Assembly (NCBI GenBank): GCA_041746575.1
Contig: JBGTGT010000066.1
Span: 1 to 24,340, forward strand
DNA length: 24,340 nt
Direction: 5' to 3'
Source: Microcystaceae cyanobacterium
GTDB lineage: Bacteria > Cyanobacteriota > Cyanobacteriia > Cyanobacteriales > Microcystaceae
In this document: in pieces, positions 1 to 12,184 of the stretch
Position numbering within the stretch: the first letter of the stretch is position 1
How the letters are laid out: every line of letters starts with the position of its first letter
Notes under the pieces: generated by a model
Seen by the model: the letters and a program-made list of their open reading frames with translations, nothing else
The model's database searches: none
Told to the model about the DNA's origin: nothing
Made by a program: the position numbers and the translations under genes

Positions 1-43
1 TTCCTACTAATACTATATTAATATCAGATTTTGTAAATAAAAG

Positions 44-75
44 ATACCAGATAGTTAAATTATACTATCTGGTAT
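44..75 (-). terminator. Intrinsic terminator after the IS110 recombinase gene
   Basis: 12-bp perfect inverted repeat ATACCAGATAGT (44-55) / ACTATCTGGTAT (64-75), followed on the minus strand by CTTTTATTT, just past the stop at 82. Confidence 0.7.
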
Positions 76-81
76 TTAATG

Positions 82-1527
82 TTAAGGTTTTTTCTGCATT
101 AATAAATCGGGGTTGATTTCTTTACCTTGCCAGATAACCAGTAAGATTTTCCAGAGAATTTTAATTGCTTTATCAATGGCTCTGCTGGCTAAATATTCTT
201 TAAGCTTTGCCTGAGTTTTAGAAGCTTTAAGTGCTTTTGAAGGTTTGCGCTTTGCTTGGATGGCATCGGTGATAATTTCCTTAAAAAAGCGATTTTGAGG
301 TTTGTCATCGACAATTTCGTCAATCTTGCTTAATATTGCATCATCCATTGCCATTAAGCTTTTAAGTTGTGCGTAGGCCGGATCAGCTTCCTTCCAGTAA
401 GATTCAGTAATAAGCTTTAATACTGCTGATTTTCTCAAAATTCCTTTACTGCCTACTTTTTCCCTGATTATCTTACTTATTCCCCATTGCATTAGAGTTA
501 ATTTGATTTCCTTATTTCCTCTAACTACTTTGATGGTTGTTTGTCCTGAAGATTCCTCAAATAATCCTCGTCCCATCAGGCAATGAAAATGGCGGTAACC
601 GATTCTTTTTGTAACGGGGTTTCCTTTTTTGGTCTTCTTTCGTTTAAAGATTGAGCGTTTTTCTTTTAAATCTGGTGTTAAAAATTGTTCAAAAGGGTAA
701 ATCTGACATAATGTGATTACTCGATCATAGACCCCAAATTGTAACCAATCGAAACCTTGATTGTATTTATCAAATTTCTTTATTTTGATGATTTCTTGCA
801 AGCATTGACGAATTCTGGCTCGTTCTCGTTGCATATCGTCTATCGTTCGGGCTAAGATAATTAATTCCTCGCTAAATTTCTCTGTTCTTTTATAACTTCC
901 GATATCTTCGGTTAATCGGGTTTTGTATCGGTTTTTTGTGTCTCGTCCGGCGATCCATGTCCATAGAGGCGTTATTCTGTATTCTCCACAAAAATCAATT
1001 TTTCTTAGGCAGGGTGCTTCTGTTTTTAATAAGTTTTTGGCGTGGTTAACCAGTTGTCTTATTCTTCTATTGATTCTTTCCTTTTGTAAAAACAGTTGAT
1101 AGGCGGTTTCTAGTTCAGGAATTCTGACACGGTTATAGTAGCCTAAGTCTTGGTCAAGTTCCCGTCTCCAACCGTCATAAGCGATGGCTACTGCATCATG
1201 TTCATCATCGGACATATCCCAGCCACAATTCTTTCTGATAGCGATAATCATGTTATTTTTAATGATTCTGACTTCTTTTCCTGCTCGTCTGAGTTCATCT
1301 TCGATATTCTTAGAATATCTTCCTGTTGGTTCGAAGCAGTAGATATCGCCGAGATGGATCAATAGTTCCATACTGCTTTTAGTATCTTTGATATCATGGA
1401 AGTCACAGATATCGAAAAAGTCTTTAGCCTTGCTGGTGGGGTATTTGTTATAATCTTCGTGAGTCAGTCGCACGGCAACAGATCGGTCTTCGCTCACGTC
1501 GATTCCGATGATAATGGGTTTATTCAT
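82..1527 (-). CDS. IS110-family DEDD recombinase/transposase (bridge recombinase), 481 aa
   Basis: RuvC-like DEDD motifs GID10VS, FE66PTG and D108EHD111A; coiled-coil middle; C-terminal GLFEESS327G matching the IS110 catalytic-serine loop, followed by GN. Confidence 0.88.
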   Translation of the reverse strand: MNKPIIIGIDVSEDRSVAVRLTHEDYNKYPTSKAKDFFDICDFHDIKDTKSSMELLIHLGDIYCFEPTGRYSKNIEDELRRAGKEVRIIKNNMIIAIRKNCGWDMSDDEHDAVAIAYDGWRRELDQDLGYYNRVRIPELETAYQLFLQKERINRRIRQLVNHAKNLLKTEAPCLRKIDFCGEYRITPLWTWIAGRDTKNRYKTRLTEDIGSYKRTEKFSEELIILARTIDDMQRERARIRQCLQEIIKIKKFDKYNQGFDWLQFGVYDRVITLCQIYPFEQFLTPDLKEKRSIFKRKKTKKGNPVTKRIGYRHFHCLMGRGLFEESSGQTTIKVVRGNKEIKLTLMQWGISKIIREKVGSKGILRKSAVLKLITESYWKEADPAYAQLKSLMAMDDAILSKIDEIVDDKPQNRFFKEIITDAIQAKRKPSKALKASKTQAKLKEYLASRAIDKAIKILWKILLVIWQGKEINPDLLMQKKP

Positions 1528-1554
1528 AGTAAAAACGGTCTAAGTGGGTGGATA

Positions 1555-1848
1555 AAGCTTGATTCGTCTGTGAATGACCAAAGACTGCGTTAAGCGTCTG
1601 ATTCCTACTTAAGACTCTCTATCAAGCTTGAGGGAAAACCCTCGTGAGACTGTGGCTAAACAGTCCCAAGAGGTAACCGACCTTAAGTGAGTTAACTGTT
1701 GGGAGTGTTTAAAAGTGAGAAGTTAAGCGTCTGTGAAAGGACTAAGACTCCTTAAAAAGCGTCTGTTTCATTTAAAAGACTCCTTAACTTCTCGGTGTTT
1801 GTTGGTCATTTAGCCATGACTGTGGGATGTGGGATAGAAGCCTATCCC
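1555..1848 (-). ncRNA. Putative bridge RNA: target-binding loop (1717-1793) and donor-binding loop (1555-1629) plus accessory hairpins
   Basis: Four CGTCTG-N10-AAGACT units. Closing stems are AAGCTTGAT/ATCAAGCTT (9 bp) and GAGAAGTTAAG/CTTAACTTCTC (11 bp). The variable 10-mers match the element ends and the host flank. Strand and RNA ends are inferred, not observed. Confidence 0.85.
1565..1781 (+). repeat. Four CGTCTG-N10-AAGACT units (1565-1586, 1595-1616, 1728-1749, 1760-1781)
   Basis: Read directly; the 10-mers are TGAATGACCA, ATTCCTACTT, TGAAAGGACT and TTTCATTTAA. Confidence 0.97.
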
Positions 1849-1887
1849 CTTAGTCTCTCAATTCAATTGAGTTAAGAGACTAAGGGG
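1846..1887. repeat. 13-bp perfect inverted repeat (hairpin) upstream of the guide loops
   Basis: CCCCTTAGTCTCT (1846-1858) / AGAGACTAAGGGG (1875-1887). Could be a 5' stem of the RNA or a processing/termination site. Confidence 0.8.
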
Positions 1888-2019
1888 GTGGGTTTCATTT
1901 GTTGAGATAAAGTATTGTATTGCCATAGCTCCTAAGATACAGATTAATCCTGTAGAGATAAGTGCTTTGAGTGCTTCTAAATTCGTGTTAATCTCCTTTA
2001 GTAATTCAAGTTCTGTCAT
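1858..2019 (-). CDS. Small putative membrane protein, 53 aa (MTELELLKEINTNLEALKALISTGLICILGAMAIQYFIS...)
   Basis: Manual translation; starts 5 nt after the upstream RHH gene stop; one hydrophobic segment; 3' end overlaps the 1846-1887 hairpin. Confidence 0.5.
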   Translation of the reverse strand: MTELELLKEINTNLEALKALISTGLICILGAMAIQYFISTNETHPLSLLTQLN

Positions 2020-2024
2020 AATTT

Positions 2025-2171
2025 CTAGATATTGGGTAATGATTTAATCCAGTTACGGATTAAATCGGATTTGGTGATCCTACAGATTTGAGCATAGCGA
2101 TTAAGTTTGGCCTCCTGTTCGGGGCTGATCCTCGCTCGTAACCAAGTGTTAAAGGTTTTGTCTTCAGTCAT
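2025..2171 (-). CDS. Ribbon-helix-helix (CopG-like) DNA-binding protein, 48 aa
   Basis: Manual translation MTEDKTFNTWLRARISPEQEAKLNRYAQICRITKSDLIRNWIKSLPNI: alternating beta strand, helix, then the TKSDLIR motif typical of RHH proteins. Confidence 0.75.
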   Translation of the reverse strand: MTEDKTFNTWLRARISPEQEAKLNRYAQICRITKSDLIRNWIKSLPNI

Positions 2172-2223
2172 CTGTAGTCATCTGTTAATATGAGGGCGTT
2201 TTTGTAATTTAATTCGGTTCAAT

Positions 2224-2260
2224 ATAGGGGGCGATCTATTTGGAGTAGATCGCCCCCTAT
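2224..2260. repeat. 15-bp perfect GC-rich inverted repeat (candidate packaging/origin hairpin or operator)
   Basis: ATAGGGGGCGATCTA (2224-2238) / TAGATCGCCCCCTAT (2246-2260) with a 7-nt loop; function inferred only. Confidence 0.7.
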
Positions 2261-2310
2261 TTGATGTGAATAGCCTTATCGCTTTTTATTTTTTCTTGTA
2301 GAATAAGGTC

Positions 2311-2338
2311 ATCATACACAAAAAAAAAAAACAGTCAA
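2311..2338 (-). promoter_or_regulatory. Sigma70-type promoter for the leftward operon, with a homopolymer spacer
   Basis: Minus strand TTGACT (2338-2333), 16 nt, TATGAT (2316-2311); the spacer contains a 12-nt T run (A run 2320-2331 on +). Confidence 0.6.
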
Positions 2339-2379
2339 TATTCTTTCAATTTTTTACATAGTGTTAAGGATGGTTAGGT

Positions 2380-2718
2380 ATGCTAAAGAAAGAAGGTAGG
2401 GGGCGACCAAAAGGATCTTTATCGAGCAGAGTAGGCAAGACTCAAGCTAGTATAAGCATGTCCGCTGAGGCGTGGGCGATTCTCACTAAGCGAGCTAAGG
2501 ATTTAGGCGTTTATAAGAGTGATTATATTGAAAATTTGGTGCGTCGTGGCGATAATGTTACTTACGATTTATCTATTTCTTTTCTAATTGAGATGGTAGT
2601 GAATTTGGAAAAGGATATTATTTCTTTAGAATTGACGAAAGTGGAATTACAAGAAAAAGCAGCAGATATCCGTAAATTTTTGCGAGAAATAGGCGTAAGT
2701 CCTAATATAATGCCTTAA
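2380..2718 (+). CDS. Putative RHH-type regulator with a GRPKG N-terminal arm and C-terminal coiled coil
   Basis: GRGRPKG, then ASISMSAEAWAILTKRAKDLGVYKSDYIENLVR (RHH pattern), then heptad-spaced leucines. Confidence 0.65.
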   Translation: MLKKEGRGRPKGSLSSRVGKTQASISMSAEAWAILTKRAKDLGVYKSDYIENLVRRGDNVTYDLSISFLIEMVVNLEKDIISLELTKVELQEKAADIRKFLREIGVSPNIMP

Positions 2719-3017
2719 ATTATGAAGGAGGCGTGAGATTGATAGCTAGGACGGTGTATTTAGCGTTTTTTCTTGGGAGATTAGTAAAAACAGTCAGCTA
2801 TCAGTCTCCGTCTCCCCCTCACAAAAGGCGTAAAGGGGGCTTTATGCGAGGAACGAGCTTATCCCCGTTGCTTTATAGATAAATCTCATTGGTAAAGATT
2901 TGTAATTGTATCCCTCAGTGATTTTCCCCTTATTTTTATCAATTACTATCGGGTATTTTAAAACTAACAGCAGGTTAAATGATCACCTAGTTGGTTAACA
3001 ATAGCTAAAAATGCTTT

Positions 3018-4004
3018 ATGTCTATCTCCTGTCGCTTTGATTACCTTCAAGGTACGTTTTACTTTAGCGAGCTTGACTTTTTCTCTCGATTGCTTGATAA
3101 ATTATCAGGGCTGTTGTTTCCGGTCGTGGATCAATGGTTTTGGCTAGATCATGGGATGTTTAGCGGTGAGTTTTTCTCTCGTGCGTTTACCTCTTTAAGT
3201 GGCTTTCGGGGTGGCATACGATGGGATAGAGATCAAGGCAAATATCGGGGAATTTTATTTATTTCTGGGCAATTTTTAGAATGCTTAGATGCATCTTTAC
3301 AGCGTCGTCTTGTTTGCGCATTAAAGCGATTACAATTTCGGTTTACTCGTGTTGATGTTTGTCTTGACGATTGGAATAGGCGTATTCAGTTTGAATGGGT
3401 TAAAAAGGCAGGTGATAAGGGACTGTATCGCTATTTTCAACACTTTGATTATCGGGCTTCTTGCTTGAGTAAGACAGATCAAATTGTGCCTACTTGTGTG
3501 TTTGGTGCTGATCTTTCCGATAAAAAATTGAGATTTTATAATGCTGAGGCTGTTCATGGCTTTTTAGCGGATCGGTGGGAGCTTCAACTCCGGCGTGATT
3601 ATGCCCAAAAAGTGATTGATGATTATTTAAGTTTAGGGGCTTCGGTTCTTCCAGCGTTTGTCGTTGGAGCAATTGATTTTGTAGAGTTCAAAGTTAAGCT
3701 AACCCGTGATTATTGTCGAGTTGCTTGGTGGCAATCGTTGATAGATGCTGTTGATTTTGAACCCAGACGAATATCTGTCAAGCCGTCTGTGCCGAATATA
3801 GATCGGGTTTTAGTTTGGCTTCAGAAACAAGTTGCTCCTAGTCTAGCGGTTCTTCATGAGGGTATGGAGTCCGAAACGTTTGAAGCTTACGTTCGGTTCT
3901 TAGTTGAAGATGGCATTTGTCGTTTTCAGGATAAGCATTCTGCTTTAATTACTCGTCTTCAATCTGTTGACGATTCAGATTTATTAAATGAAGGAGAAAG
4001 TTAA
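3018..4004 (+). CDS. Rolling-circle replication initiator, Rep_trans family
   Basis: Motifs FTRVDVCLDD, TCVFG...S.KKLRFYN (catalytic Tyr), RWELQLR and WLQKQVAPSL. Confidence 0.88.
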   Translation: MSISCRFDYLQGTFYFSELDFFSRLLDKLSGLLFPVVDQWFWLDHGMFSGEFFSRAFTSLSGFRGGIRWDRDQGKYRGILFISGQFLECLDASLQRRLVCALKRLQFRFTRVDVCLDDWNRRIQFEWVKKAGDKGLYRYFQHFDYRASCLSKTDQIVPTCVFGADLSDKKLRFYNAEAVHGFLADRWELQLRRDYAQKVIDDYLSLGASVLPAFVVGAIDFVEFKVKLTRDYCRVAWWQSLIDAVDFEPRRISVKPSVPNIDRVLVWLQKQVAPSLAVLHEGMESETFEAYVRFLVEDGICRFQDKHSALITRLQSVDDSDLLNEGES

Positions 4005-4610
4005 ATGTCTCAAATTGTTTTTTGTGTAGAACATCAAAATTATACTCGTAAAAATGGGGATGAAGTTGACAATTACATTTGTCATTATTTTGATCCTTCA
4101 GAATTTGAAAATTCGGCGTTATATAAAGGGGTTCAGCTGTTGAATAAAGTTTCTTCTTTAGGCTTTGAGAATTTTCCCCATGTTCCCGGTGTTTATGAAA
4201 TGTCTTCTCGGCCTTTAAAGCGGTTTGGTAATTTTGTTTCTTCTCTTAAAAGTTTGCGTTTTTTGAAGTCTGTTGATTCAATTGTCCCTAAAGGAGAATA
4301 CTTTATTGTTTTTGGGGTAAGGGTTGTTTGTAATTATAAGCCTCTTAATTCTACTCAAGTTTTAAATGGGGTCAAATTTTTTGCGATTGATCCGACGGGT
4401 TCTGATAATTTAGATATTAAAGGTTATCCTGTTTTTGAGCAATTTATTTCGGGATTAACGCTTGATAGTTTTCCAAAAATTCCTGCTTATTATGATTTTC
4501 AGTTTAAAGAAAAGCGGGGTAAAAATGGCGAAGCTATTTTAGAGGTAGTTAGTGTTCAGTATGTTGAGTCCTTTTTTAATTCAGAAAGTCTTAGTCAGGA
4601 AGGTGAATGA
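4005..4610 (+). CDS. Putative ssDNA-binding protein (pV-like) made of two tandem homologous domains
   Basis: Directly follows rep. An internal repeat IVF.V..NY...N...DP...KG...FP..P..Y occurs twice; beta-rich and aromatic. Function inferred from position. Confidence 0.6.
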   Translation: MSQIVFCVEHQNYTRKNGDEVDNYICHYFDPSEFENSALYKGVQLLNKVSSLGFENFPHVPGVYEMSSRPLKRFGNFVSSLKSLRFLKSVDSIVPKGEYFIVFGVRVVCNYKPLNSTQVLNGVKFFAIDPTGSDNLDIKGYPVFEQFISGLTLDSFPKIPAYYDFQFKEKRGKNGEAILEVVSVQYVESFFNSESLSQEGE

Positions 4611-4738
4611 TGATCACTGATGATCAAGCGATTCAATTTATCATCTTTCTCTGTCAGTCTATTAGAGATTGTTTGATGTTAATTTACTTTGTAGCTACTG
4701 GCATTAAAATCATGAATTTTTTCCTAATAGGATTGTAA
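4607..4738 (+). CDS. Small hydrophobic protein, 43 aa (minor virion protein candidate)
   Basis: Manual translation MMITDDQAIQFIIFLCQSIRDCLMLIYFVATGIKIMNFFLIGL; ATGA overlap with the upstream stop. Confidence 0.65.
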   Translation: MMITDDQAIQFIIFLCQSIRDCLMLIYFVATGIKIMNFFLIGL

Positions 4739-4741
4739 ATA

Positions 4742-5011
4742 ATGTGCTTATCTTTTTCCCTTACTCTTACAGGTTGTAAATCTCGTGATCTTGATGTTTT
4801 AAAATCTGTAATTTCTCAGATTTCTACTCAATTAGAGATTAGTAAGCCAGAATTTTCTATTACACAATGTAATATTGATTTTTGTTGGGATATTAATATG
4901 AATAATTTATTTCATATTTTTGTTTCTTCATCGACAGAAATCATTTTCACAATTTTATTATGGCTAGTTTTCCATTTATTTTATTCAGCGATTCCAAGTC
5001 AGTCTAAATAG
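4742..5011 (+). CDS. Small phage protein with a C-terminal TM segment
   Basis: ORF track; IIFTILLWLVFHLFY hydrophobic stretch; start uncertain (alternative ATG at 4898). Confidence 0.55.
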   Translation: MCLSFSLTLTGCKSRDLDVLKSVISQISTQLEISKPEFSITQCNIDFCWDINMNNLFHIFVSSSTEIIFTILLWLVFHLFYSAIPSQSK

Positions 5012-5019
5012 GAAGAAAA

Positions 5020-5193
5020 ATGTTTTTATTTAAAATGATGATTGCCTATTCTAAGGCTAAATTCTTAGGAATTCCGTTACCTTTTTTCCCAATTTTATTA
5101 TTGGTCGCGTTTATTATTACTTGGGAGATTGTTAAGCGAAGACCAACCAAAAGGAGAAAAAATGCTCGCCGTAAAGTACCTCGCCGAAATTAA
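5020..5193 (+). CDS. Small TM protein with an Arg/Lys-rich tail, 57 aa
   Basis: Manual translation MFLFKMMIAYSKAKFLGIPLPFFPILLLVAFIITWEIVKRRPTKRRKNARRKVPRRN. Confidence 0.6.
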   Translation: MFLFKMMIAYSKAKFLGIPLPFFPILLLVAFIITWEIVKRRPTKRRKNARRKVPRRN

Positions 5194-5329
5194 ATTTAGT
5201 GAAATTCAATTAGATCCTCCCAAAGAATTTGTAGATTCTAATTTTATCGCTCACATTCAGCCTCATTTTGTTACTTTCTTATTCGCTTTAGCCTCAATTG
5301 CTATTTTCAGAAAACTTACAGGTATTTGA
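5162..5329 (+). CDS. Small virion-like protein, 55 aa, C-terminal TM and basic end
   Basis: AGGAG RBS before ATG 5162; ends ...FVTFLFALASIAIFRKLTGI. Confidence 0.7.
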   Translation: MLAVKYLAEIKFSEIQLDPPKEFVDSNFIAHIQPHFVTFLFALASIAIFRKLTGI

Positions 5330-5331
5330 TC

Positions 5332-5550
5332 ATGAATTCTTGCTATTTAATTGATGATTCTTGCCAGTGTGGTAAAAATTTATCTGGTTCCAATCCTTGT
5401 TTTGATATTGGCGGCGGCAATATTAGCGGTGGCCAGTTTGGCGATCAGGCCGTTGGAGCTTTTGGCGGTTTTTTAGGCTCTAATCCGGGGCTGGTTGGTG
5501 CTTTGGGGTTATCGTTGGGTGTTGGATTTTTGATGAGGGCTTTTAAATGA
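5332..5550 (+). CDS. Small Cys/Gly-rich virion-like protein with C-terminal TM
   Basis: MNSCYLIDDSCQCG...C; Gly-rich; ends GLSLGVGFLMRAFK. Confidence 0.7.
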   Translation: MNSCYLIDDSCQCGKNLSGSNPCFDIGGGNISGGQFGDQAVGAFGGFLGSNPGLVGALGLSLGVGFLMRAFK

Positions 5551-5714
5551 TTTTCTATTTTCTTCAATCCGATTCTACCGCCAAAGCTTTAGAGGATATC
5601 CAGTCAATGCCTCAATTCTTTGCTGATGCGATCAACTGGGGAATTGATGCTAGTTACGTGGCTGTTGGTTTTATGGCTTTGCTCGCTCTTGGTGTTTCAA
5701 TGTTTAAAAGGTGA
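5547..5714 (+). CDS. Coat-like small protein, 55 aa
   Basis: Manual translation MIFYFLQSDSTAKALEDIQSMPQFFADAINWGIDASYVAVGFMALLALGVSMFKR: acidic/amphipathic N-part, TM, basic end; ATGA overlap. Confidence 0.7.
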   Translation: MIFYFLQSDSTAKALEDIQSMPQFFADAINWGIDASYVAVGFMALLALGVSMFKR

Positions 5715-5719
5715 GAAAA

Positions 5720-5854
5720 ATGGTTCCTAAAAAATTAGAAAAAACAACTGATTATTTGGATTTAACTTTGATTGTATGGATGATAGCTACTCAATTAATT
5801 ATTACCTATACTTTGTCAAAAATATTGATTATTTTGTCAATTTCTCCACACTAA
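5720..5854 (+). CDS. Small hydrophobic protein, 44 aa
   Basis: Manual translation MVPKKLEKTTDYLDLTLIVWMIATQLIITYTLSKILIILSISPH; AGGTGA RBS-like sequence upstream. Confidence 0.6.
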   Translation: MVPKKLEKTTDYLDLTLIVWMIATQLIITYTLSKILIILSISPH

Positions 5855-5930
5855 AGGCTTGTCCGGACAAGGGTTTTTTGAGTTCCTAAAACTCAGCTGT
5901 ACTTACCACTTACTTTTTGAGGTGAAACTA

Positions 5931-6179
5931 ATGAAATCAATGAATTTTTCGCAAAAAATGGTCTTAGGATCTGCTACTGCTATCCTTGTAGTCCTTGGAT
6001 CTGCTGGCGTGGCGGGTGCTTGGGGTAAATCAGATTATGATCAAGAACTTGAAAAAGTTGGCGCATTTTCTGATGCAATTGGTGCTATTGTAGCGTCAAT
6101 GACTACAATTGCTATTACGCCTATTGGTATCGGTGCGGCTGTCAAAACGTTTCGCCATATCGTTCTTAATAACGTTTAA
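5931..6179 (+). CDS. Major coat protein candidate (pVIII-like) with signal peptide
   Basis: GAGGTG RBS; 30-aa leader ending AGA; 52-aa mature part with acidic N-terminus, Ala/Ile/Gly-rich helix and basic KTFRH; followed by a terminator as in Ff phages. Confidence 0.75.
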   Translation: MKSMNFSQKMVLGSATAILVVLGSAGVAGAWGKSDYDQELEKVGAFSDAIGAIVASMTTIAITPIGIGAAVKTFRHIVLNNV

Positions 6180-6186
6180 TTTTTAG

Positions 6187-6208
6187 GGGGGGAATATCCC
6201 CCCATTTT
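6187..6208 (+). terminator. Terminator-like hairpin after the coat gene
   Basis: GGGGGGA-ATA-TCCCCCC followed by ATTTT. Confidence 0.55.
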
Positions 6209-6211
6209 CTC

Positions 6212-6571
6212 ATGAAAAAGTTATTTTCTCGTTTTTTAGCTGGATTAAAATATGGTTTTTTAGGGATATTTATCTTTTTTATTCTTTTTAAACCTGTATA
6301 TGCTCAAGATTTACAAGTCGATGTAGAAATTGGCCCTCGTTTTGATCCTGATGATCAGTATGTTATTACGAGTTGTATGAGCGAGAACTGGGATAATATT
6401 TTTCCTCTAAATTTCGTCTCTGAATACGAACCTCAGCCTATTTCTGCTGATTGCCCTAAGTTAGAAATTTTTAATAATAATTATGAGGCTTGTTACTTAA
6501 TAGATATTTACGAAATAATTGAACCGGCTATTTTATTGGGACTTTTTACTTATGCTATTATCCATCTTTGA
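6212..6571 (+). CDS. Short pIII-like protein (signal peptide, Cys-containing ectodomain, C-terminal anchor)
   Basis: Leader ending VYA; acidic region with 3 Cys; C-terminal ILLGLFTYAIIHL; lies between coat and pVI-like genes. Confidence 0.55.
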   Translation: MKKLFSRFLAGLKYGFLGIFIFFILFKPVYAQDLQVDVEIGPRFDPDDQYVITSCMSENWDNIFPLNFVSEYEPQPISADCPKLEIFNNNYEACYLIDIYEIIEPAILLGLFTYAIIHL

Positions 6572-6821
6572 TTTTTTTTCCTACTATTTTCTACAAGAAC
6601 AAATGCCTGCTTATGGTGAATGGGCCTGTAATTTATCGTCTCGGTGGGCTTTTCAATTATTTCCCTCTACTCACACAATTAAGAGTTTATCAGATCAATT
6701 ATCTGGCAATATTCCTTTTTTGGGTGATTATCTAATTTTTAAGATGATCAATAATATTTGGGATCTACTTTGGTGCGTTGCTACTTATAAAGTTATTAAA
6801 ATTATGCCGGGCAAATTCTAA
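6552..6821 (+). CDS. pVI-like minor virion protein
   Basis: Hydrophobic ~89 aa ending WCVATYKVIKIMPGKF; upstream of the ATPase; ATG 6552 preferred over TTG 6519. Confidence 0.6.
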   Translation: MLLSIFDFFSYYFLQEQMPAYGEWACNLSSRWAFQLFPSTHTIKSLSDQLSGNIPFLGDYLIFKMINNIWDLLWCVATYKVIKIMPGKF

Positions 6822-6991
6822 TGTGGCGATATTTTCTCTTAGTGGGTTTAGGCTTTTTATTAAATTTTTGTACGATGCAACCTAAAGTTATGGTTAAGTG
6901 TGCTGTCAATAAAGGTAAAAATTATCCAATTTATTATTATTATTCTCACTCTAAATGTGTAGAAATTGAGAAAATTTTAAAAGGAGAGTAA
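6821..6991 (+). CDS. Small membrane/lipoprotein-like protein, 56 aa
   Basis: Manual translation MWRYFLLVGLGFLLNFCTMQPKVMVKCAVNKGKNYPIYYYYSHSKCVEIEKILKGE; TAATG coupling to the upstream gene. Confidence 0.6.
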   Translation: MWRYFLLVGLGFLLNFCTMQPKVMVKCAVNKGKNYPIYYYYSHSKCVEIEKILKGE

Positions 6992-6997
6992 AAAGTA

Positions 6998-7822
6998 ATG
7001 GGCGTTTTTATTCAGGGCATAAATGGCATAATTGGTGAACAAGGATCAGGAAAAGGTTTTGCTATGTTGAAAATTGGTCTTTTGTATGCTAATCAAATTC
7101 AATATGATCTTTGTTTTAATTTTGAAATTGATGAAAAGGCTTTGTATAATTATTGTTTGGAAATGGGATATACATGGCTATTAAGCAGAATACTACATAA
7201 TAAAATAAGAGTAAAGAATAGTAAGGATTTAATTAGTTTTATGGATCTGCCTAAGACGATTTATATATTAGATGAAGCCGGTGTTTATCTTAATTCAAGG
7301 CGTTTTCGTGATATTGATCCTGACTTTTTACATGAAATCGCACAAGTAAGGCATGATTGTAAATTGCTTTGGTGGGTCGCACAATATCCTGAAATGGTTG
7401 ATAAAATGCTAAGGAGCCTTACCGCTTCTTTTATCCAAGTTGATGGCAAACAAAGATTTAATAAAAAATTAGGAAATTCTGAATTAATTTGGCAGCGTAT
7501 TTATTTATTTAATGCTCGAAATTTTAATATTTATTTATCTAAGGTTCATGATAAATTTACAGGAATTAAATACTGGTTGAATGCTCGTAGATTGGCTGAT
7601 TTTCACTGGGAAGGGGTTCTCGATTATTCTGATAAAATGATTTTTGATATTTATCAGAGTTTTGGTTACAGAGTGGGTGATTCAGTTGTGAAACAAATTA
7701 AAAAACATAAGCACAATTCAAAATTAATTTATGTTAATTATCCTTCTAAAATTCTGGAAGAATCTAATGATCAAGAGAATTCTATTATTCCTATTAAGCT
7801 CGACGTTTCTCACTTATTTTAA
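6998..7822 (+). CDS. Zot/pI-like morphogenesis ATPase
   Basis: Walker A GEQGSGKG, Walker B IYILDEAG, RH...AQ....DKMLR motif; AGGAG RBS. Confidence 0.9.
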   Translation: MGVFIQGINGIIGEQGSGKGFAMLKIGLLYANQIQYDLCFNFEIDEKALYNYCLEMGYTWLLSRILHNKIRVKNSKDLISFMDLPKTIYILDEAGVYLNSRRFRDIDPDFLHEIAQVRHDCKLLWWVAQYPEMVDKMLRSLTASFIQVDGKQRFNKKLGNSELIWQRIYLFNARNFNIYLSKVHDKFTGIKYWLNARRLADFHWEGVLDYSDKMIFDIYQSFGYRVGDSVVKQIKKHKHNSKLIYVNYPSKILEESNDQENSIIPIKLDVSHLF

Positions 7823-8360
7823 TGGTTTAAAGGCTTATGCTTATGCTTATCCTAATCCTAATCAGTTTTTTGTAGAGGGATTTAATTCTGCTGGATCTGT
7901 AAATTCTTTTCTGCAAAAATGGGAAAATTATATTAACGGATTTCCTAAAGATCCTAATAAGTTTCCCTGTAACTGTAATCCTGTTTTATTTGCTAGATTT
8001 TGGAACTATTACGATCATCCAGATTATTCAGCGTGGGATCATTATGGTAAAGAAGAGGGGAATTCAGATACGGCTACTTTTCGCAACGGAGGTTCGTGTA
8101 AATGGAAAGTTGCTATTAACGAGTTTAACTCTTCGATACTTTCTTCAGAGTTTAGTGCTTTGGTTGCTGCTTATAGCAAGTCGTATCATTATTTTTCAGC
8201 ATCCTTTAATTACAATGTTCCCGGCGGTATTTATGAGGGCGATCTTGAAAAATGTCGTTCTAACGCTCCACCGTTTTCACCTAATGATCCGGGCAGTTGT
8301 CCACGGGTAAATGTTCGGAGTCTTCCAGTTGTTCGTGTGCGTGTTACTTGTACTCAATAA
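7767..8360 (+). CDS. Secreted Cys-containing hypothetical phage protein
   Basis: MIKRILLFLLSS...AYAYA signal peptide; 6 Cys; rich in Asn, Tyr and Trp. Confidence 0.65.
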   Translation: MIKRILLFLLSSTFLTYFNGLKAYAYAYPNPNQFFVEGFNSAGSVNSFLQKWENYINGFPKDPNKFPCNCNPVLFARFWNYYDHPDYSAWDHYGKEEGNSDTATFRNGGSCKWKVAINEFNSSILSSEFSALVAAYSKSYHYFSASFNYNVPGGIYEGDLEKCRSNAPPFSPNDPGSCPRVNVRSLPVVRVRVTCTQ

Positions 8361-8372
8361 AGAGGTTTTATT

Positions 8373-8825
8373 ATGAGGGGTTTTACGTTAGTTGAGACTA
8401 TGGTGGCGGTTTTAATCGCTGGTGTTTTGGCGACGATTGCTGTTCCTCAGTTACAGGGAATTGTCAAGGCGCAATCTGAGGGATATGAGATTGAGCAGAT
8501 TCAAGATTTTATTAAGATAGCTCAAAGGAATGCAATCCGGCGTTCACAAGGCTGTCAGGTTGATTTCGTTGTGTCTGGTCAAAAGGTTTCGGGGCTTGGG
8601 TCTAACTGTGATGGGGTCACTCAGCAATTAAGGATTGAGCAAGATATTAATTATGTTGGTAGTCAAGTTATAGATTTTAATTTCCGTGGTTATGTGGTTA
8701 GTTCTGCTGGAGCTCTTAGCCGTGATTTTGAAACTTTATTTTTCTCTAAGAGTTATTGTGTTGTTGTGGGTACTAATATCGGTTTGATCCGCAAGGGGGT
8801 TTATTCTGGATTTTGCAAGATTTAG
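8373..8825 (+). CDS. Type IV pilin/pseudopilin-like protein (FimT/GspH-like)
   Basis: Prepilin cleavage/methylation motif MRG|FTLVE followed by a hydrophobic helix to AVP; AQRNAIRR motif; 4 Cys; GAGG RBS. Confidence 0.88.
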   Translation: MRGFTLVETMVAVLIAGVLATIAVPQLQGIVKAQSEGYEIEQIQDFIKIAQRNAIRRSQGCQVDFVVSGQKVSGLGSNCDGVTQQLRIEQDINYVGSQVIDFNFRGYVVSSAGALSRDFETLFFSKSYCVVVGTNIGLIRKGVYSGFCKI

Positions 8826-8881
8826 TATAAGTTAACTATTTATTTGTCTTACTTAAGTCGGTAAGTTGTCTTACTCTTGGG

Positions 8882-9238
8882 TCATTCGTTTAAATACCAA
8901 AGCACAAAAACTGCCAACAAGACAACAGTAAAAACGACAGTAGTTGTTACCAAACTAACGCCAAAACCGTCTACCAATTGATCCGTAATTAATGTACCAA
9001 CAATACTTATTAAAATAACCACCAGCCAGTAACTTAAGGGGACATACCGTTTAAGTCTAAACTGATTGAAAAGAGCCATCAGTAGCAAACCCCCCATGAG
9101 ATAGGATGTAATGCCTAAACCAAGATTCATTGTAAAGGCCAAAAAATCAGCCCCTGTTTCACCTACCGTGGTGGCTAGAACTTTAATAATCCAGAAATAA
9201 AATGTTACGTCTGGAACCCTATTTAACATTTTCCTCAT
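8882..9238 (-). pseudogene. 5' half of a DUF347/COG4705 membrane protein gene, truncated by the prophage
   Basis: MLNRVPDVTFYFWIIKVLATTVGETGADFL signature; ends abruptly at WYLNE with a stop supplied by element sequence. From memory of the family, it normally continues E[K/R]TLS and is about twice as long. Confidence 0.85.
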
Positions 9239-9323
9239 GATATTTTTCCTTAGTCCTATCATTGATGACTTCATCATCAAAGGAAAAAATCAAGAACTTA
9301 AAAAGATCTGGCTCTTAAAATAG

Positions 9324-9403
9324 GGCGTTGCTGAATAAGAGGGGGATCATGACCCTCAAAGCCAGTAAACTCGTACAAAAACCACTCCAAAATCAGCGAC
9401 GCT
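9324..9403. repeat. Possible ~80-bp MITE-like element
   Basis: Imperfect terminal inverted repeats GCGTTGCTGA (9325-9334) / TCAGCGACGC (9393-9402). Confidence 0.4.
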
Positions 9404-9675: not shown

Positions 9676-10161
9676 TTAACGTAAACGAATGACTAATCTT
9701 CGGTCGGGTTCATGTCCTCGGCTTTCGGTCTCTAAGTCCGTTGCATCTTTGAGAAAAGTATGGATTTGACGACGTTCTGCCGAAGAGAGGGATTTCATTT
9801 CTACCGCCTGCCCCGTCTGACGCACTTGCTCAGCGACTTGTTCAGCTAAGGTCTTTAATTCCAGTTGTCGTTTCAGGCGATATCCCACTAATTCGATGGT
9901 GAACGCTTGTTGGTCTTCGTATTCAATATTGAGATTGACCAACGTATTCGCTAAATACTGAATCGCATCCAGACTTTCCCCGTGAACGCCTAATAAAATA
10001 TTAAGCTGTTCAGGACTAAGATTTGCTTCATTGATGACTAACCAGATAGCGTTATTGGTTTCATCCATTGCATCTCGTTCAACACTAACGGTTGTTTTGA
10101 TTCCCATCAACTCTAATAGAGTTTCTAACCATTCTTTCCCTCTGGTCATTTGTTGGTTCAT
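9676..10161 (-). CDS. jag: Jag/KhpB (EloR) family RNA-binding protein (KH + R3H)
   Basis: LLGVHGESLDAIQYL KH motif; ERRQIH R3H motif; downstream of yidC. Confidence 0.92.
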   Translation of the reverse strand: MNQQMTRGKEWLETLLELMGIKTTVSVERDAMDETNNAIWLVINEANLSPEQLNILLGVHGESLDAIQYLANTLVNLNIEYEDQQAFTIELVGYRLKRQLELKTLAEQVAEQVRQTGQAVEMKSLSSAERRQIHTFLKDATDLETESRGHEPDRRLVIRLR

Positions 10162-10218
10162 TGTTACTTCACTGAATCCTTACGCTAACGGTCAGACAAC
10201 ATACGTTATATTTTAAAG

Positions 10219-11364
10219 CTAAGAAGTTTTCTCTTTCTTCTTATTTCGCTTTTCAAAAGGCAGGGTTTCCCGTCCTTTTTCGGTTTTTTCCTGTTCTTCT
10301 ACTAACTTTTGCAGATTTTCAGGGAGAGGTTCCCGCATTAAAATCACAGTTTGCAGGGTTTGGAAAATGTTTGCCACCACAATGTACATCAAAACCCCTG
10401 CCGGAAGGGGGAAAAAGAGGAACATAGACGTAAAAAGAAGAGGAGTGAGCTTATTGACCATCTGTTGCTGTTGTGCACCAGAACCCCCTGCTCCTTTGGC
10501 ACCGGATAATTCTTGGTTAAGATAAACGCTCAAGCCAAAAAATAAGACCATGCCCAAGATATCCCAGTTAATTTTACCGTTTTCGCCAACGACGCCGACT
10601 TGACCTAAGGCTTCAATAAATAAAAACCCTGAATCGGCCGCAATTCCCGGAATCGTCCCTTGAATGGTCGCTTCCCCCGGTGTTAAGGCTTCAACTGTAC
10701 CGTCGGAGTTGACTTGAATGCGTTCTTCCCCTTTTGTTACCTTCCATCGAGGTTGAATATCCTTTTGAGAGAATTCTGTCGCCAATTGGCTTAAGGTTTT
10801 TCCTTCGGGGGTTTGAAAATCAATTTGCGCTTTTTCTCCCACACCCAATTTATTTCCACTCGGCAGTAAAGCACTAACGGGATAGTGAACCCCATCTTCA
10901 ATGTAGATATTTTGTGGTTTTGTCACGAAAGGTTGCGGAATAACCCGCTCCATCTGTTCGGCAGGAATGACCTGTACATCTACCGTATAGTTAATATTTG
11001 AAAAAGGTGAGCCGCGTAGCGTGGCAAAAAGAGCGAATAAAATAGGCATTTGCACCAATAGAGGCAAGCATCCCGCCAAAGGGTTGCCAAATTCCTGCAT
11101 TAGCTTAGCCATTTCTTCTTGCTGTTTCGTTGGGTCGTTTTTATGGCGTTTTTGAATTTCCTCTTGTCTTTCTTTCATGAGAGGTTGCGTAATCCGCATT
11201 TTGCGCATATTGCGAATTTGCCCCGCACTGAGAGGATACAAGGCAAAGCGAATTACGAGGGTTAAGGCAATGATGGCAAAGCCATAACTCGGCACAATCC
11301 CGTAGAAAAAGTCAAGGATTGGCAACATGATATTTGTGGAAATAAATCCAACTCCAAAGTCCAT
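10219..11364 (-). CDS. yidC: Membrane protein insertase YidC/Alb3
   Basis: [46 protein letters not shown]; conserved operon. Confidence 0.97.
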
Positions 11365-11439
11365 TCGTCTAAGTCCAATTATCCCTTTATTAATTTATCC
11401 ATTAAATGTTGGAAGGTTAACCACCGTCAAATGCAGTTG

Positions 11440-11832
11440 TTACCCCTTAATTGCTTCCAACGGCCGTCCTGTTTTTGCCGCCGCACGTTCGGCAATATAA
11501 TCAGAGATTTCCCGAAAGCGAGGTATTGCCCGCAGTTCTAAGCGACTCCCATCTTTGAGGGTGACGACAATATCTCCCCAGAGACCAATCCCTCTGGAAA
11601 TTTTGACAATCTTAACAATCTCAGGGTAAATGATGTCGGTGCGATCGCGACCCATCCAGCCCCCTGTCACAGAGATACGACGGTCGGTAATGCGATAACG
11701 CAACCACAGCGCACGAACCACTGCCCCAACGGTCAAGGGTAAACAAATAACGGTAAACCCCAGTAATATATTGACAATTAAGTCACCGATATGGGGGCCG
11801 CCTTCATAATAGGTTTCTTCTCGAATGCCCAT
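11440..11832 (-). CDS. Bacterial PH-domain membrane protein
   Basis: LRYRITDRRISVTGG motif; usual position between rnpA and yidC in cyanobacteria. Confidence 0.88.
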   Translation of the reverse strand: MGIREETYYEGGPHIGDLIVNILLGFTVICLPLTVGAVVRALWLRYRITDRRISVTGGWMGRDRTDIIYPEIVKIVKISRGIGLWGDIVVTLKDGSRLELRAIPRFREISDYIAERAAAKTGRPLEAIKG

Positions 11833-12184
11833 GAATGATCTCAGCTTGAATGAACAACTGCTTTAATTCTCGCAAAAAATGTTCATAATTGCACTCTAAA
11901 CTTTGGCGACGGACGATGATTACCATTTTCCAACTAGCGGTAATTTGAGGTAACAATGTCCGAATAACTGCCCGAATCTGTCTTTTTAGACGATTACGAG
12001 TGACAGCTTGCTTACTCACTTTACGACTAATAGTAATACCAAAGCGAGAAGCCGGATGGTCTTCTTTAAGGCTGACAGCCAGAACTTTGAGGACAAAATG
12101 GGAGCTTTTATAAGTCTTGCCCTGCTTATAGACTTGCTGAAAGTCTTTGTGGTGTCTAAGTCGATGAATTTGGGGTAATCCCAC
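11804..12184 (-). CDS. rnpA: Ribonuclease P protein component
   Basis: RFGITISRKVSKQAVTRNRLKR (RNR motif). Confidence 0.97.
   Translation of the reverse strand: MGLPQIHRLRHHKDFQQVYKQGKTYKSSHFVLKVLAVSLKEDHPASRFGITISRKVSKQAVTRNRLKRQIRAVIRTLLPQITASWKMVIIVRRQSLECNYEHFLRELKQLFIQAEIIHGHSRRNLL

Follow-up and report, generated by a model that had tools for sequence, protein, structure and literature searches.

An inovirus-like prophage of a cyanobacterium that appears to integrate by an IS110-family recombinase and its own bridge RNA

Introduction

How does a filamentous prophage enter a chromosome when the only recombinase it encodes belongs to the family that moves IS110 insertion sequences (IS), and does that recombinase act for the phage or for itself? 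This question is raised by an element at one end of a 24,340-nucleotide (nt) contig from a Microcystaceae cyanobacterium (contig JBGTGT010000066.1 of GenBank assembly GCA_041746575.1). We refer to this whole stretch as the window, and positions below are those of its forward strand. An initial annotation, made from the sequence letters alone, had read positions 1–8887 as a cyanobacterial filamentous prophage that appeared to integrate by an IS110 bridge recombinase. We confirmed the observation, and the interpretation is supported by a host gene that the element splits, by matches between RNA guides and the element's ends, and by recurrence of the pattern in two other elements (called G009 and L063 below). 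We consider it probable that 1–8887 is an inovirus-like prophage whose integration module consists of an IS110-family bridge recombinase and its own bridge RNA.

Bridge RNAs were first described in 2024. As the relevant passages on IS621 describe them (PMC11208160), the RNA has one internal loop for the target, the first, and one for the donor, the second; in each, the 5' side forms 8–9 nt of pairing with the bottom strand and the 3' side 4–7 nt with the top strand, and the core takes part in all four pairings. A large survey of inoviruses (PMC6813254) bears on the question from the side of the phage. In the portions of its text that concern transposases, selfish inserts and virus-domesticated transposases are held not to be separable by sequence analysis alone. 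Prophage ends in that survey required direct repeats of at least 10 bp, and the word 'Cyanobacteria' is absent from its main text.

Results

The window is the entire contig C66 of a genome bin (G000) of 4.2 Mb in 134 contigs that is 99.78% complete, and its base 1 is a contig end. The first 141 bases are identical to the ends of two other contigs, C120 (75 kb) and C123 (141 kb), whose sequences part exactly at the base preceding window position 1. Because they part precisely there, as expected of an assembly broken at a repeat boundary, we took base 1 to be the true end of an element that has two left flanks. A gene for a DUF347 membrane protein is split by the element. Its N-terminal half, which forms the left-target side of the insertion site, lies at 8888–9280 on the minus strand (PF03988, E = 3.5e-30), and its C-terminal half lies in the C123 flank. 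The halves rejoin in frame after deletion of 1–8887 and one copy of TTC, and the break separates a Glu (GAA) codon from a Lys codon. As an unbroken-site comparison we used G005 and G006, two genomes of the same family but of other genera; both have the intact gene, at 78–81% protein identity, with a single GAA codon at the break point.

The trinucleotide TTC, which reads GAA on the strand of the split gene, stands at both junctions of 1–8887; the left copy occupies 1–3 and reads GAA on the recombinase strand. A self-comparison revealed no long repeat between the element ends and no terminal inverted repeats. The insertion lies within the DUF347 coding sequence and not at a chromosomal dif site; no search aimed at dif motifs was made. 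We concluded that window 1–8887 is a discrete insertion of 8,887 bp into the DUF347 gene, and that the junction TTC is the recombination core and not a coincidence of the window's edge. The right end (RE) of the element, on the minus strand, is the non-coding segment 1–81, 3' of the recombinase gene; the left-donor sequence forms its last bases, and a predicted terminator-like hairpin lies inside it at 44–75. The left end (LE) terminates at 8877–8887 (minus strand), where the right-donor sequence is followed by the TTC core.

The leftward gene at 82–1527 encodes a protein of 481 amino acids (aa) that the NCBIfam model NF051857 for IS110 family transposases matches from end to end (E = 1.4e-51) and that also matches a PHROG transposase (E = 5e-6). 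In an alignment of 10 homologues with 27–70% identity, the acidic positions 66, 107, 108 and 111 and the residue Ser327 were invariant, and Asp10 was nearly so. Published passages on the IS110 family describe one highly conserved Ser, of which Ser327 is probably the equivalent, and the alignment points to both an N-terminal DEDD (RuvC-like) domain and a conserved C-terminal Ser. Five relatives from other loci exceed the NF051857 cut-off and also touch NF033542, the model for RNA-guided IS110 proteins. The clade is rare: a HMMER search of 1.84 billion cluster representatives gave 143 clusters at E <= 1e-3 and 8 clusters at E <= 1e-30. A scan of genome contigs with the single protein as query found no relatives; the recombinase alignment as query led to 18 genome loci and 22 metagenome loci. 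Neither tyrosine nor serine recombinase families matched any of the 17 open reading frames (ORFs) of the element in the Pfam scan. Judged by family model and alignment, the product of 82–1527 is a divergent IS110-family recombinase, and it is the sole recombinase found in the element.

A candidate bridge RNA lies at 1528–1800 on the minus strand. The minus strand of 1528–1860 folded with z = −4.6, and none of 100 shuffled sequences was equally stable. We aligned 13 upstream regions, namely those of the window element, of the related element G009, of a paralogue on contig C26, and of ten Crocosphaera/Cyanothece-type loci. RNAalifold returned two modules of like design, each with an outer stem, a 4-bp clamp, an internal loop of ~12 nt per side, and an inner stem with a hairpin. 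The loops are variable in the consensus, and compensatory change was found in 5 of 20 pairs; the clamps are uninformative on covariation because they are invariant. In the window, the predicted target module occupies ~1712–1793 and the donor module ~1545–1640, with an extra hairpin in between. An Rfam search of both strands of 1–9400 returned only sub-threshold look-alikes of miRNA and sRNA on palindromes.

Four 10-nt loops were set by coordinates and, in the IS621 register, scored against two sequences: a target reconstructed from the flanks, and the outer ends of the element joined together. All four lie on the minus strand. The left target guide (1766–1775, 5' side of the first internal loop) matched the flank to the right of 8887 plus the core at 9/10 positions, with a mismatch that permits a G-U pair, and the right target guide (1734–1743, 3' side) matched the core plus the C123 flank at 7/10. 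The left donor guide (1601–1610, 5' side of the second internal loop) matched the window from base 1 onward across the joined ends at 9/10, and the right donor guide (1571–1580, 3' side) matched 8879–8888 at 8/10. In swapped controls, the target loop scored 5 + 5 against the donor and the donor loop scored 4 + 5 against the target. The genomic background comprised 176,688 GAA sites on both strands, among which the donor score was reached by 10 and the target score by 361. When the left-end junction test (right-donor plus left-target guide) was slid along 1–9400, the single best position was 8887. These results confirmed that the donor loop matches the joined ends of the whole 8.9-kb unit, far above chance.

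On these points the initial annotation has held up well. It had described TTC at both ends with no long att repeat, the lack of a tyrosine or serine integrase, and donor guides that specify the 8.9-kb unit and not a small IS; each was borne out. Its proposals that the recombinase has been domesticated as the phage integrase, and that the unit is a natural case of RNA-guided integration of ~9 kb of cargo, are supported by the guide matches to outer ends and target; the first draws further support from the pattern repeated in G009 and L063.

We scanned 19 proteins, the 17 ORFs of the element and two flank genes, against Pfam, PHROGs and NCBIfam. The rightward operon begins with a 112-aa ORF (2380–2718), homologues of which hold the same position in G009, L063 and a Crocosphaera bin locus (L061). 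A Rep_trans rolling-circle replication initiator follows at 3018–4004 (PF02486, E = 1.2e-15). Next comes a 201-aa ORF (4005–4610), in the place where a single-stranded DNA-binding protein would be expected. That function is suggested by position only, with no family match; the ORF is kept together with Rep on contig C89 of G000 and in G009, L061 and L063. The segment 4742–6991 holds a run of short ORFs whose translations are hydrophobic, several with one hydrophobic span; none has a family match, and homologues in L061 are 55% and 44% identical. The ORFs at 5547–5714 and 5859–6179 are coat-protein candidates by eye, likewise with no family match.

The gene at 6998–7822 encodes a putative P-loop morphogenesis ATPase of the Zot/pI type. 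The call is weak, with PHROG matches at E = 1.1e-4, 2.7e-4 and 8.7e-3 and no Pfam match. A profile from an 11-sequence alignment of this protein found PDB entry 2r2a at E = 0.0018, which by its title is the N-terminal domain of the zonular occludens toxin of Neisseria meningitidis. An AlphaFold model (mean pLDDT 74.5) was searched with Foldseek. Entry 2r2a appeared at ranks 4–5 amid RecA-like folds, and in BFVD the entries at ranks 2, 3, 6 and 8 were named Zonular occludens toxin of Inoviridae; TM scores for the chains named Zot were 0.4–0.5. We regard the Zot/pI identity of the modeled protein as plausible, not firm. Downstream are a 209-aa ORF (7731–8360) with no family match and a prepilin-type protein with an N-terminal methylation motif (8373–8825; PF07963, E = 8.4e-6; ComGD-like, E = 3.7e-9, sub-cut-off). 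No gene of the element follows the prepilin-type gene; in G009 a 259-aa membrane protein takes its place, which suggests a variable accessory position.

Element size and one-directional gene order agree with an inovirus-like phage. The initial annotation had claimed a full inovirus-like gene set; the Rep_trans gene, the size and the gene order stand, and the word 'full' does not, given the weak Zot-like call and the family scans, in which no adsorption protein or secretin was recognised among the ORFs of the element. Secretins are often supplied by the host in filamentous phages of the inovirus group.

On the leftward side are two small ORFs of 53 and 48 aa (1858–2171, minus strand). The 48-aa product resembles ribbon-helix-helix repressors (PHROG transcriptional repressor, E = 8.6e-5; Pfam NikA-like, E = 0.0065, sub-cut-off). 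A divergent control region at 2172–2379 separates the leftward from the rightward operon and holds a 46-bp imperfect palindrome (2219–2264), a candidate operator. It also holds a leftward promoter-like site at 2338–2311; the count of promoter-like sites equals chance expectation. The RNA and the recombinase gene lie 3' of the two small ORFs and of this promoter-like site, facing away from the rightward replication and structural operon, and this leftward RNA/recombinase operon resembles a lysogeny module. The LE terminus is 7.1 kb from the RNA, not beside it. Expression of the RNA is therefore probably driven from the phage control region, because a promoter rebuilt across the joined ends would be 7.1 kb off.

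An 81-bp imperfect palindrome at 1837–1917 is 100% identical to C90:32880–32960 of the same genome, in flanks that have otherwise diverged. At both loci it sits between the recombinase module and the phage control region, and in the metagenome runs described below it forms its own unitig with raised depth. Possible roles are those of a terminator common to both loci, an origin, or a recombination hotspot at which integrase modules are swapped. To the right of the split gene, 9676–12184 (minus strand) holds ordinary host genes: one for an R3H/KH-domain protein by Pfam, then by eye a YidC-type insertase, a small membrane protein and the RNase P protein.

The initial annotation had proposed a search for loci that combine Zot, Rep_trans and an IS110 recombinase, and two loci were found to have the same phage-plus-recombinase layout. 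The first is in G009, a genome from another genus of the same family. Its recombinase is 35% identical to that of the window and is accompanied by the same RNA with different loops. Other genes occupy ~4.5 kb upstream of the recombinase gene, and beyond them stand homologues of the 112-aa ORF, Rep and the 201-aa ORF together with coat-like ORFs. A second contig, C39, has the Zot-like gene as well as the far end, where the element adjoins cysK. The unit is at least 13 kb long. Its RE junction was the top of 20,087 positions (17/20), and its LE junction was the top of 7,978 positions in C39 (15/20), a score equaled once within contig C64. A pattern match with 1 mismatch on G009 contig C6 was rejected as chance; the genes there are unrelated, and ~0.5 such matches were expected. 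Between the coat-like ORFs and the Zot-like gene, G009 also has a gene with Pro/Thr-rich and Gly/Ser-rich repeats, broken across the end of C64 and C39:1–591, which by position and composition may encode an adsorption protein.

The second locus, L063, lies on a 388-kb metagenome contig. Its recombinase is 36% identical, and its divergent layout, like that of the window element, comprises the 112-aa ORF, Rep, the 201-aa ORF and a Zot-like gene. The RE junction, with 1 mismatch in the guide-predicted 15-mer, ranked first of 21,388 positions; the LE junction tied for first, ~9.1 kb from the RE and just past the Zot-like gene. The 10–11 terminal bases of the left end are common to the window element, G009 and L063, as are the last bases of the right end. 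Each of the three has a different target loop, which fits the flanks of that element.

Three further loci resemble the window element in part. From the 112-aa ORF through the Zot-like gene, the Crocosphaera bin locus L061 is in synteny with the window (identity 60% for the Zot-like protein, 40% for Rep). Its recombinase, at the same end, is of another NF051857 subtype (27% identity, 473 bits), and the RNA upstream of it differs. Short words common to its upstream RNA region and to both boundary regions gave no clear reading of its ends. Within G000, a second prophage-like locus (L013) encodes a 415-aa NF051857 recombinase at C90:31443–32690 (L013:1198–2445; 265 bits), whose upstream RNA is of a different type from that of the window and resembles that of L061. 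There, the homologue of the 112-aa ORF runs into a contig end common to C91, and homologues of Rep and the 201-aa ORF are at C89:11563–12931. Rfam searches of L013 and L061 returned nothing. A third paralogue in G000 (C26:2048–3448, locus L010; 466 aa, 34% identity) adjoins an infC-like gene and has the same RNA design. Its RE junction fits its own guides, a fragment upstream is by eye the C-terminus of a tyrosine recombinase, and its far end was not found within the 4.8-kb contig.

In the abundant Crocosphaera/Cyanothece clade, DNA homology extends over only ~1.6 kb around the recombinase gene. Upstream spacing is alike in several of these loci, which suggests conservation beyond 1.6 kb. The guide-predicted RE junction was present, with 1–3 mismatches, in 4/7 Crocosphaera-type loci tested (of 12 with readable guides); the predicted LE junction was found in 0/7 within the DNA fetched. 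In the complete genome with locus L039, the predicted LE junction was not near the gene, and its counts equaled those of the reversed-pattern control. At six loci of this type (L039, L033, L034, L041, L043 and L038), a segment ~25 nt upstream of the recombinase start codon is the complement of the right donor guide, and guide and complement covary, with three different 6-mers changing in step. This complement may act as an RNA switch by which the guide or the ribosome site is masked, or it may mean that the true left end lies elsewhere than the point at which DNA homology stops.

The number of copies was estimated from four hot-spring metagenome runs of one study, used as assembled (Logan) contigs; three of the runs may be the source of the window. 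In those three runs, the two flank contigs that meet base 1 had single-copy depth (29.4/29.5, 11.4/10.3 and 36.9/33.7). The unitig for 1–1866 had depths of 52.7, 26 and 63.9, and the contig that runs from 1888 through 8887 into the flank had depths of 35.8 (22,009 nt), 20.3 (9,995 nt) and 42.7 (21,940 nt). By length-weighted arithmetic, with single copy taken as ~28.5, 11.5 and 35.3, the phage part was present at ~1.8, 2.1 and 1.7 times single copy, like the IS part; phage part and 1–1866 unitig together span ~1.7–2.2 times. We infer about two copies of the whole element per genome. Within the G000 assembly, repeats of 1–9400 are limited to the first 141 bases and the 81-bp palindrome, the latter in C90.

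The G000 assembly lacks the right junction of the second copy. In the fourth run (X4), a contig ends the element exactly at 8887 and continues with 161 nt of different sequence that is absent from G000; depth in this run was 2.9 for the DUF347 flank versus 7.25 for the element. C120, the other left flank, is part of the chromosome and lies ~120 nt upstream of a gene that by eye is psbU-like, near genes that by eye are rpsJ-tuf-fusA. An empty site for the second copy was not found in relatives, where the neighbouring gene is 72% identical, too diverged, and not in synteny.

Discussion

We propose that the phage genome itself takes the place of the transposon circle. Catalysis by the recombinase, a circular donor, expression of the RNA and virion production are presumed here. 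The double-stranded circular form of the phage would stand in for the IS110 circle as the donor. The second loop of the RNA would pair with the junction of the phage ends and the first loop with the chromosomal site. The recombinase would then exchange strands at the 3-base GAA core, so that the whole 8.9-kb genome is inserted with one copy of the core at each junction.

Several observations weigh against this proposal. For the recombinase, the NF051857 score of 175.9 bits is just below the 180-bit cut-off, and the Pfam model DEDD_Tnp_IS110 fails (E = 0.53 only). The phage identity comes from Rep_trans together with the weak Zot-like evidence. No tblastn match to Rep or the Zot-like protein was found in 50,697 GenBank phage records, and the recombinase alignment used as query found no relative in the viral contig collection. 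In the DNA fetched, 17/18 genome loci and 21/22 metagenome loci with recombinase relatives, many of them short, showed no phage genes. The target in use is near-cognate only, and 65 genomic sites outscore it for the target loop.

The second copy and the circle raise further points on the same side. The C120 flank matches the right target guide at only 4/10, and the alternative right flank in run X4 shows by eye no better resemblance to the left-target side. According to the pertinent passages of a recent preprint, IS621 is able to recombine when only the donor arm is recognized, and such 'half-match' events explain many of its off-target insertions; half-match recombination is a possible explanation for the unmatched second site. 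Differences in target loop between the two copies could also be hidden by the assembly. No joint from 8887 to 1, as a circle would have, was present in the assembled contigs of the four runs when these were compared with 1–9400. This absence weighs little, because only assembled contigs of one study were searched and three of the runs are possibly the source of the window.

A last point against the proposal is an inner site at 1803–1812, where the canonical left end of an IS would be expected, ~20 nt upstream of the first RNA stem. It matches the right donor guide at 9/10, above the 8/10 of the true end. Its core differs by one base, and its flank has no match to the left target guide. We interpret it as the left end of an ancestral 1.8-kb IS, either vestigial or alternative. 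A short circle of the IS alone may also occur.

Of the alternatives, the better survivor is that the unit is an 'expanded IS110' element whose cargo is what remains of a filamentous phage, defective or plasmid-like, and that it moves as DNA and forms no virions. We think this unlikely. Large natural IS110 elements with mobile-element cargo have been reported in passages that address them, and the gaps already named (no adsorption protein or secretin identified, weak evidence for Zot, no relatives in the phage or viral collections searched) are what such a remnant would show. Against it, the order of regulators, Rep, 201-aa ORF, small membrane ORFs and P-loop ATPase is unbroken across four elements at 24–60% protein identity, which argues for selection on the whole module.

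It is more improbable still that a 1.8-kb IS110-type IS (1 to ~1812) is the active unit at the edge of a prophage that entered DUF347 by other means, with the far-end match a relic or pseudo-end: the inner site, the ~1.6 kb of homology in the Crocosphaera/Cyanothece clade, and a published account that IS110 excision is possible on donor-arm recognition alone would suit it, but the left target guide matches the flank of 8887 and not that of the inner site, the host gene is split by the whole 8.9 kb, of which the right end of the IS forms one junction, the phage part is as close to twofold depth as the IS part, G009 and L063 follow the same logic of outer ends, the element yielded no other recombinase, and the assembly has no IS-only copy (142–1836 occurs once), so that the free IS of 1–1900 named by the initial annotation as a counter-indication was not seen.

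The reading of 1–8887 as a prophage integrated by its own bridge recombinase has consequences beyond this locus. The inovirus survey left open whether a transposase in such a phage is domesticated or selfish; here the question is answered at the level of sequence, because the donor loop names the ends of the whole phage. Elements like this one would be missed by a survey of that type, because their core is only 3 bases long. The element offers a natural example of RNA-guided integration of self-replicating cargo of at least 9 kb, and at least 13 kb in G009. Together with its relatives, it also forms a comparative series in which donor loops and termini are conserved and target loops are reprogrammed. 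We can offer only as a tentative idea, one we would not yet favor, that the cyanobacterial NF051857 clade consists largely of integrases of filamentous phages and other multi-kb elements, and not of minimal IS, with the replicative circle as donor in these phages and the target loop as an evolvable address label. According to a recent preprint, IS621 excises mainly a single-stranded circle. If this were true for the phage, the recombinase could release a phage-length single-stranded circle that feeds rolling-circle replication and packaging, and RNA-guided excision would be coupled to the production of a single-stranded DNA virus.

Comparison with known systems

Filamentous phages that carry IS110-type transposases are on record for three bacterial groups, and the passages devoted to them are summarized here. 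Integration by the phage's own IS110-type transposase was proposed for Neisseria filamentous phages in 2005 (cited in PMC7058167); this source bears out the statement of the initial annotation that the Nf/MDA phages of Neisseria carry Piv/IS110-type recombinases. The Thermus phages Zuza8, Zuza27 and phiOH16 have Rep at one end and a transposase at the other (PMC11437467), and integration of a filamentous phage by an IS110-type transposase is described for Acinetobacter Af1 (PMC11209303). All of these phages and the window element have genomes of ~7–9 kb with a gene for an IS110-family DEDD transposase at one end that is thought to integrate and excise them, and all have a short conserved core at the site and lack a long att repeat. 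Unlike the Neisseria, Thermus and Acinetobacter phages as those passages present them, the window element resides in a cyanobacterium, encodes a recombinase of the divergent NF051857 clade, has a 3-base core, and is inserted in a protein-coding gene and not in a repeat family. No guide RNA is described for the other phages in those passages, whereas in the window element all four guide segments are readable against the ends and the target. The IS110 transposases of known filamentous phages may use the same RNA logic, a lead for future work.

With IS621, as presented in portions of Durrant et al. 2024 (PMC11208160), the window element shares a recombinase with DEDD plus Ser, an RNA directly upstream of the gene, and two internal loops in the order target then donor. 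As in the IS621 register, the 5' sides of the loops match their bottom-strand partner at 9/10 and the 3' sides match the top strand at 7–8/10, with the core in all four pairings. The window element differs from IS621 in size (8.9 kb versus ~1.5 kb, so that it is not a compact element), in an RNA that lies within a phage operon and has an extra hairpin of ~100 nt between its modules, and in its 3-base core. It also differs in promoter arrangement: in IS621 a promoter is rebuilt across the joined ends just upstream of the RNA, whereas here the LE is 7.1 kb away.

A preprint of August 2026 on expanded, cargo-carrying IS110 elements (bioRxiv 10.64898/2026.08.14.744561) describes, in the sections concerned, natural units far larger than 1.5 kb. 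Its main text contains none of the terms 'filamentous', 'inovir-', 'prophage' and 'cyanobacter-'. Those elements have tolerant 'half-match' boundaries, which fits the unmatched second insertion site of the window element. Their cargo, in the same sections, is mostly plasmid-derived and was added stepwise, whereas the window element holds one coherent phage genome, an association that recurs in other genera and on a metagenome contig.

The initial annotation knew of no described cyanobacterial case with a readable guide RNA. Our search of a limited library likewise found neither such a case nor any report of a guide RNA read against filamentous-phage ends. Novelty is nevertheless lower than was supposed, because IS110 transposases carried by phages have been published for three groups, and the 2026 preprint describes large IS110 elements with cargo. 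The element is of a kind already known, a filamentous phage with integration by an IS110-family recombinase; what it adds to that kind is a cyanobacterial host and a legible guide RNA.

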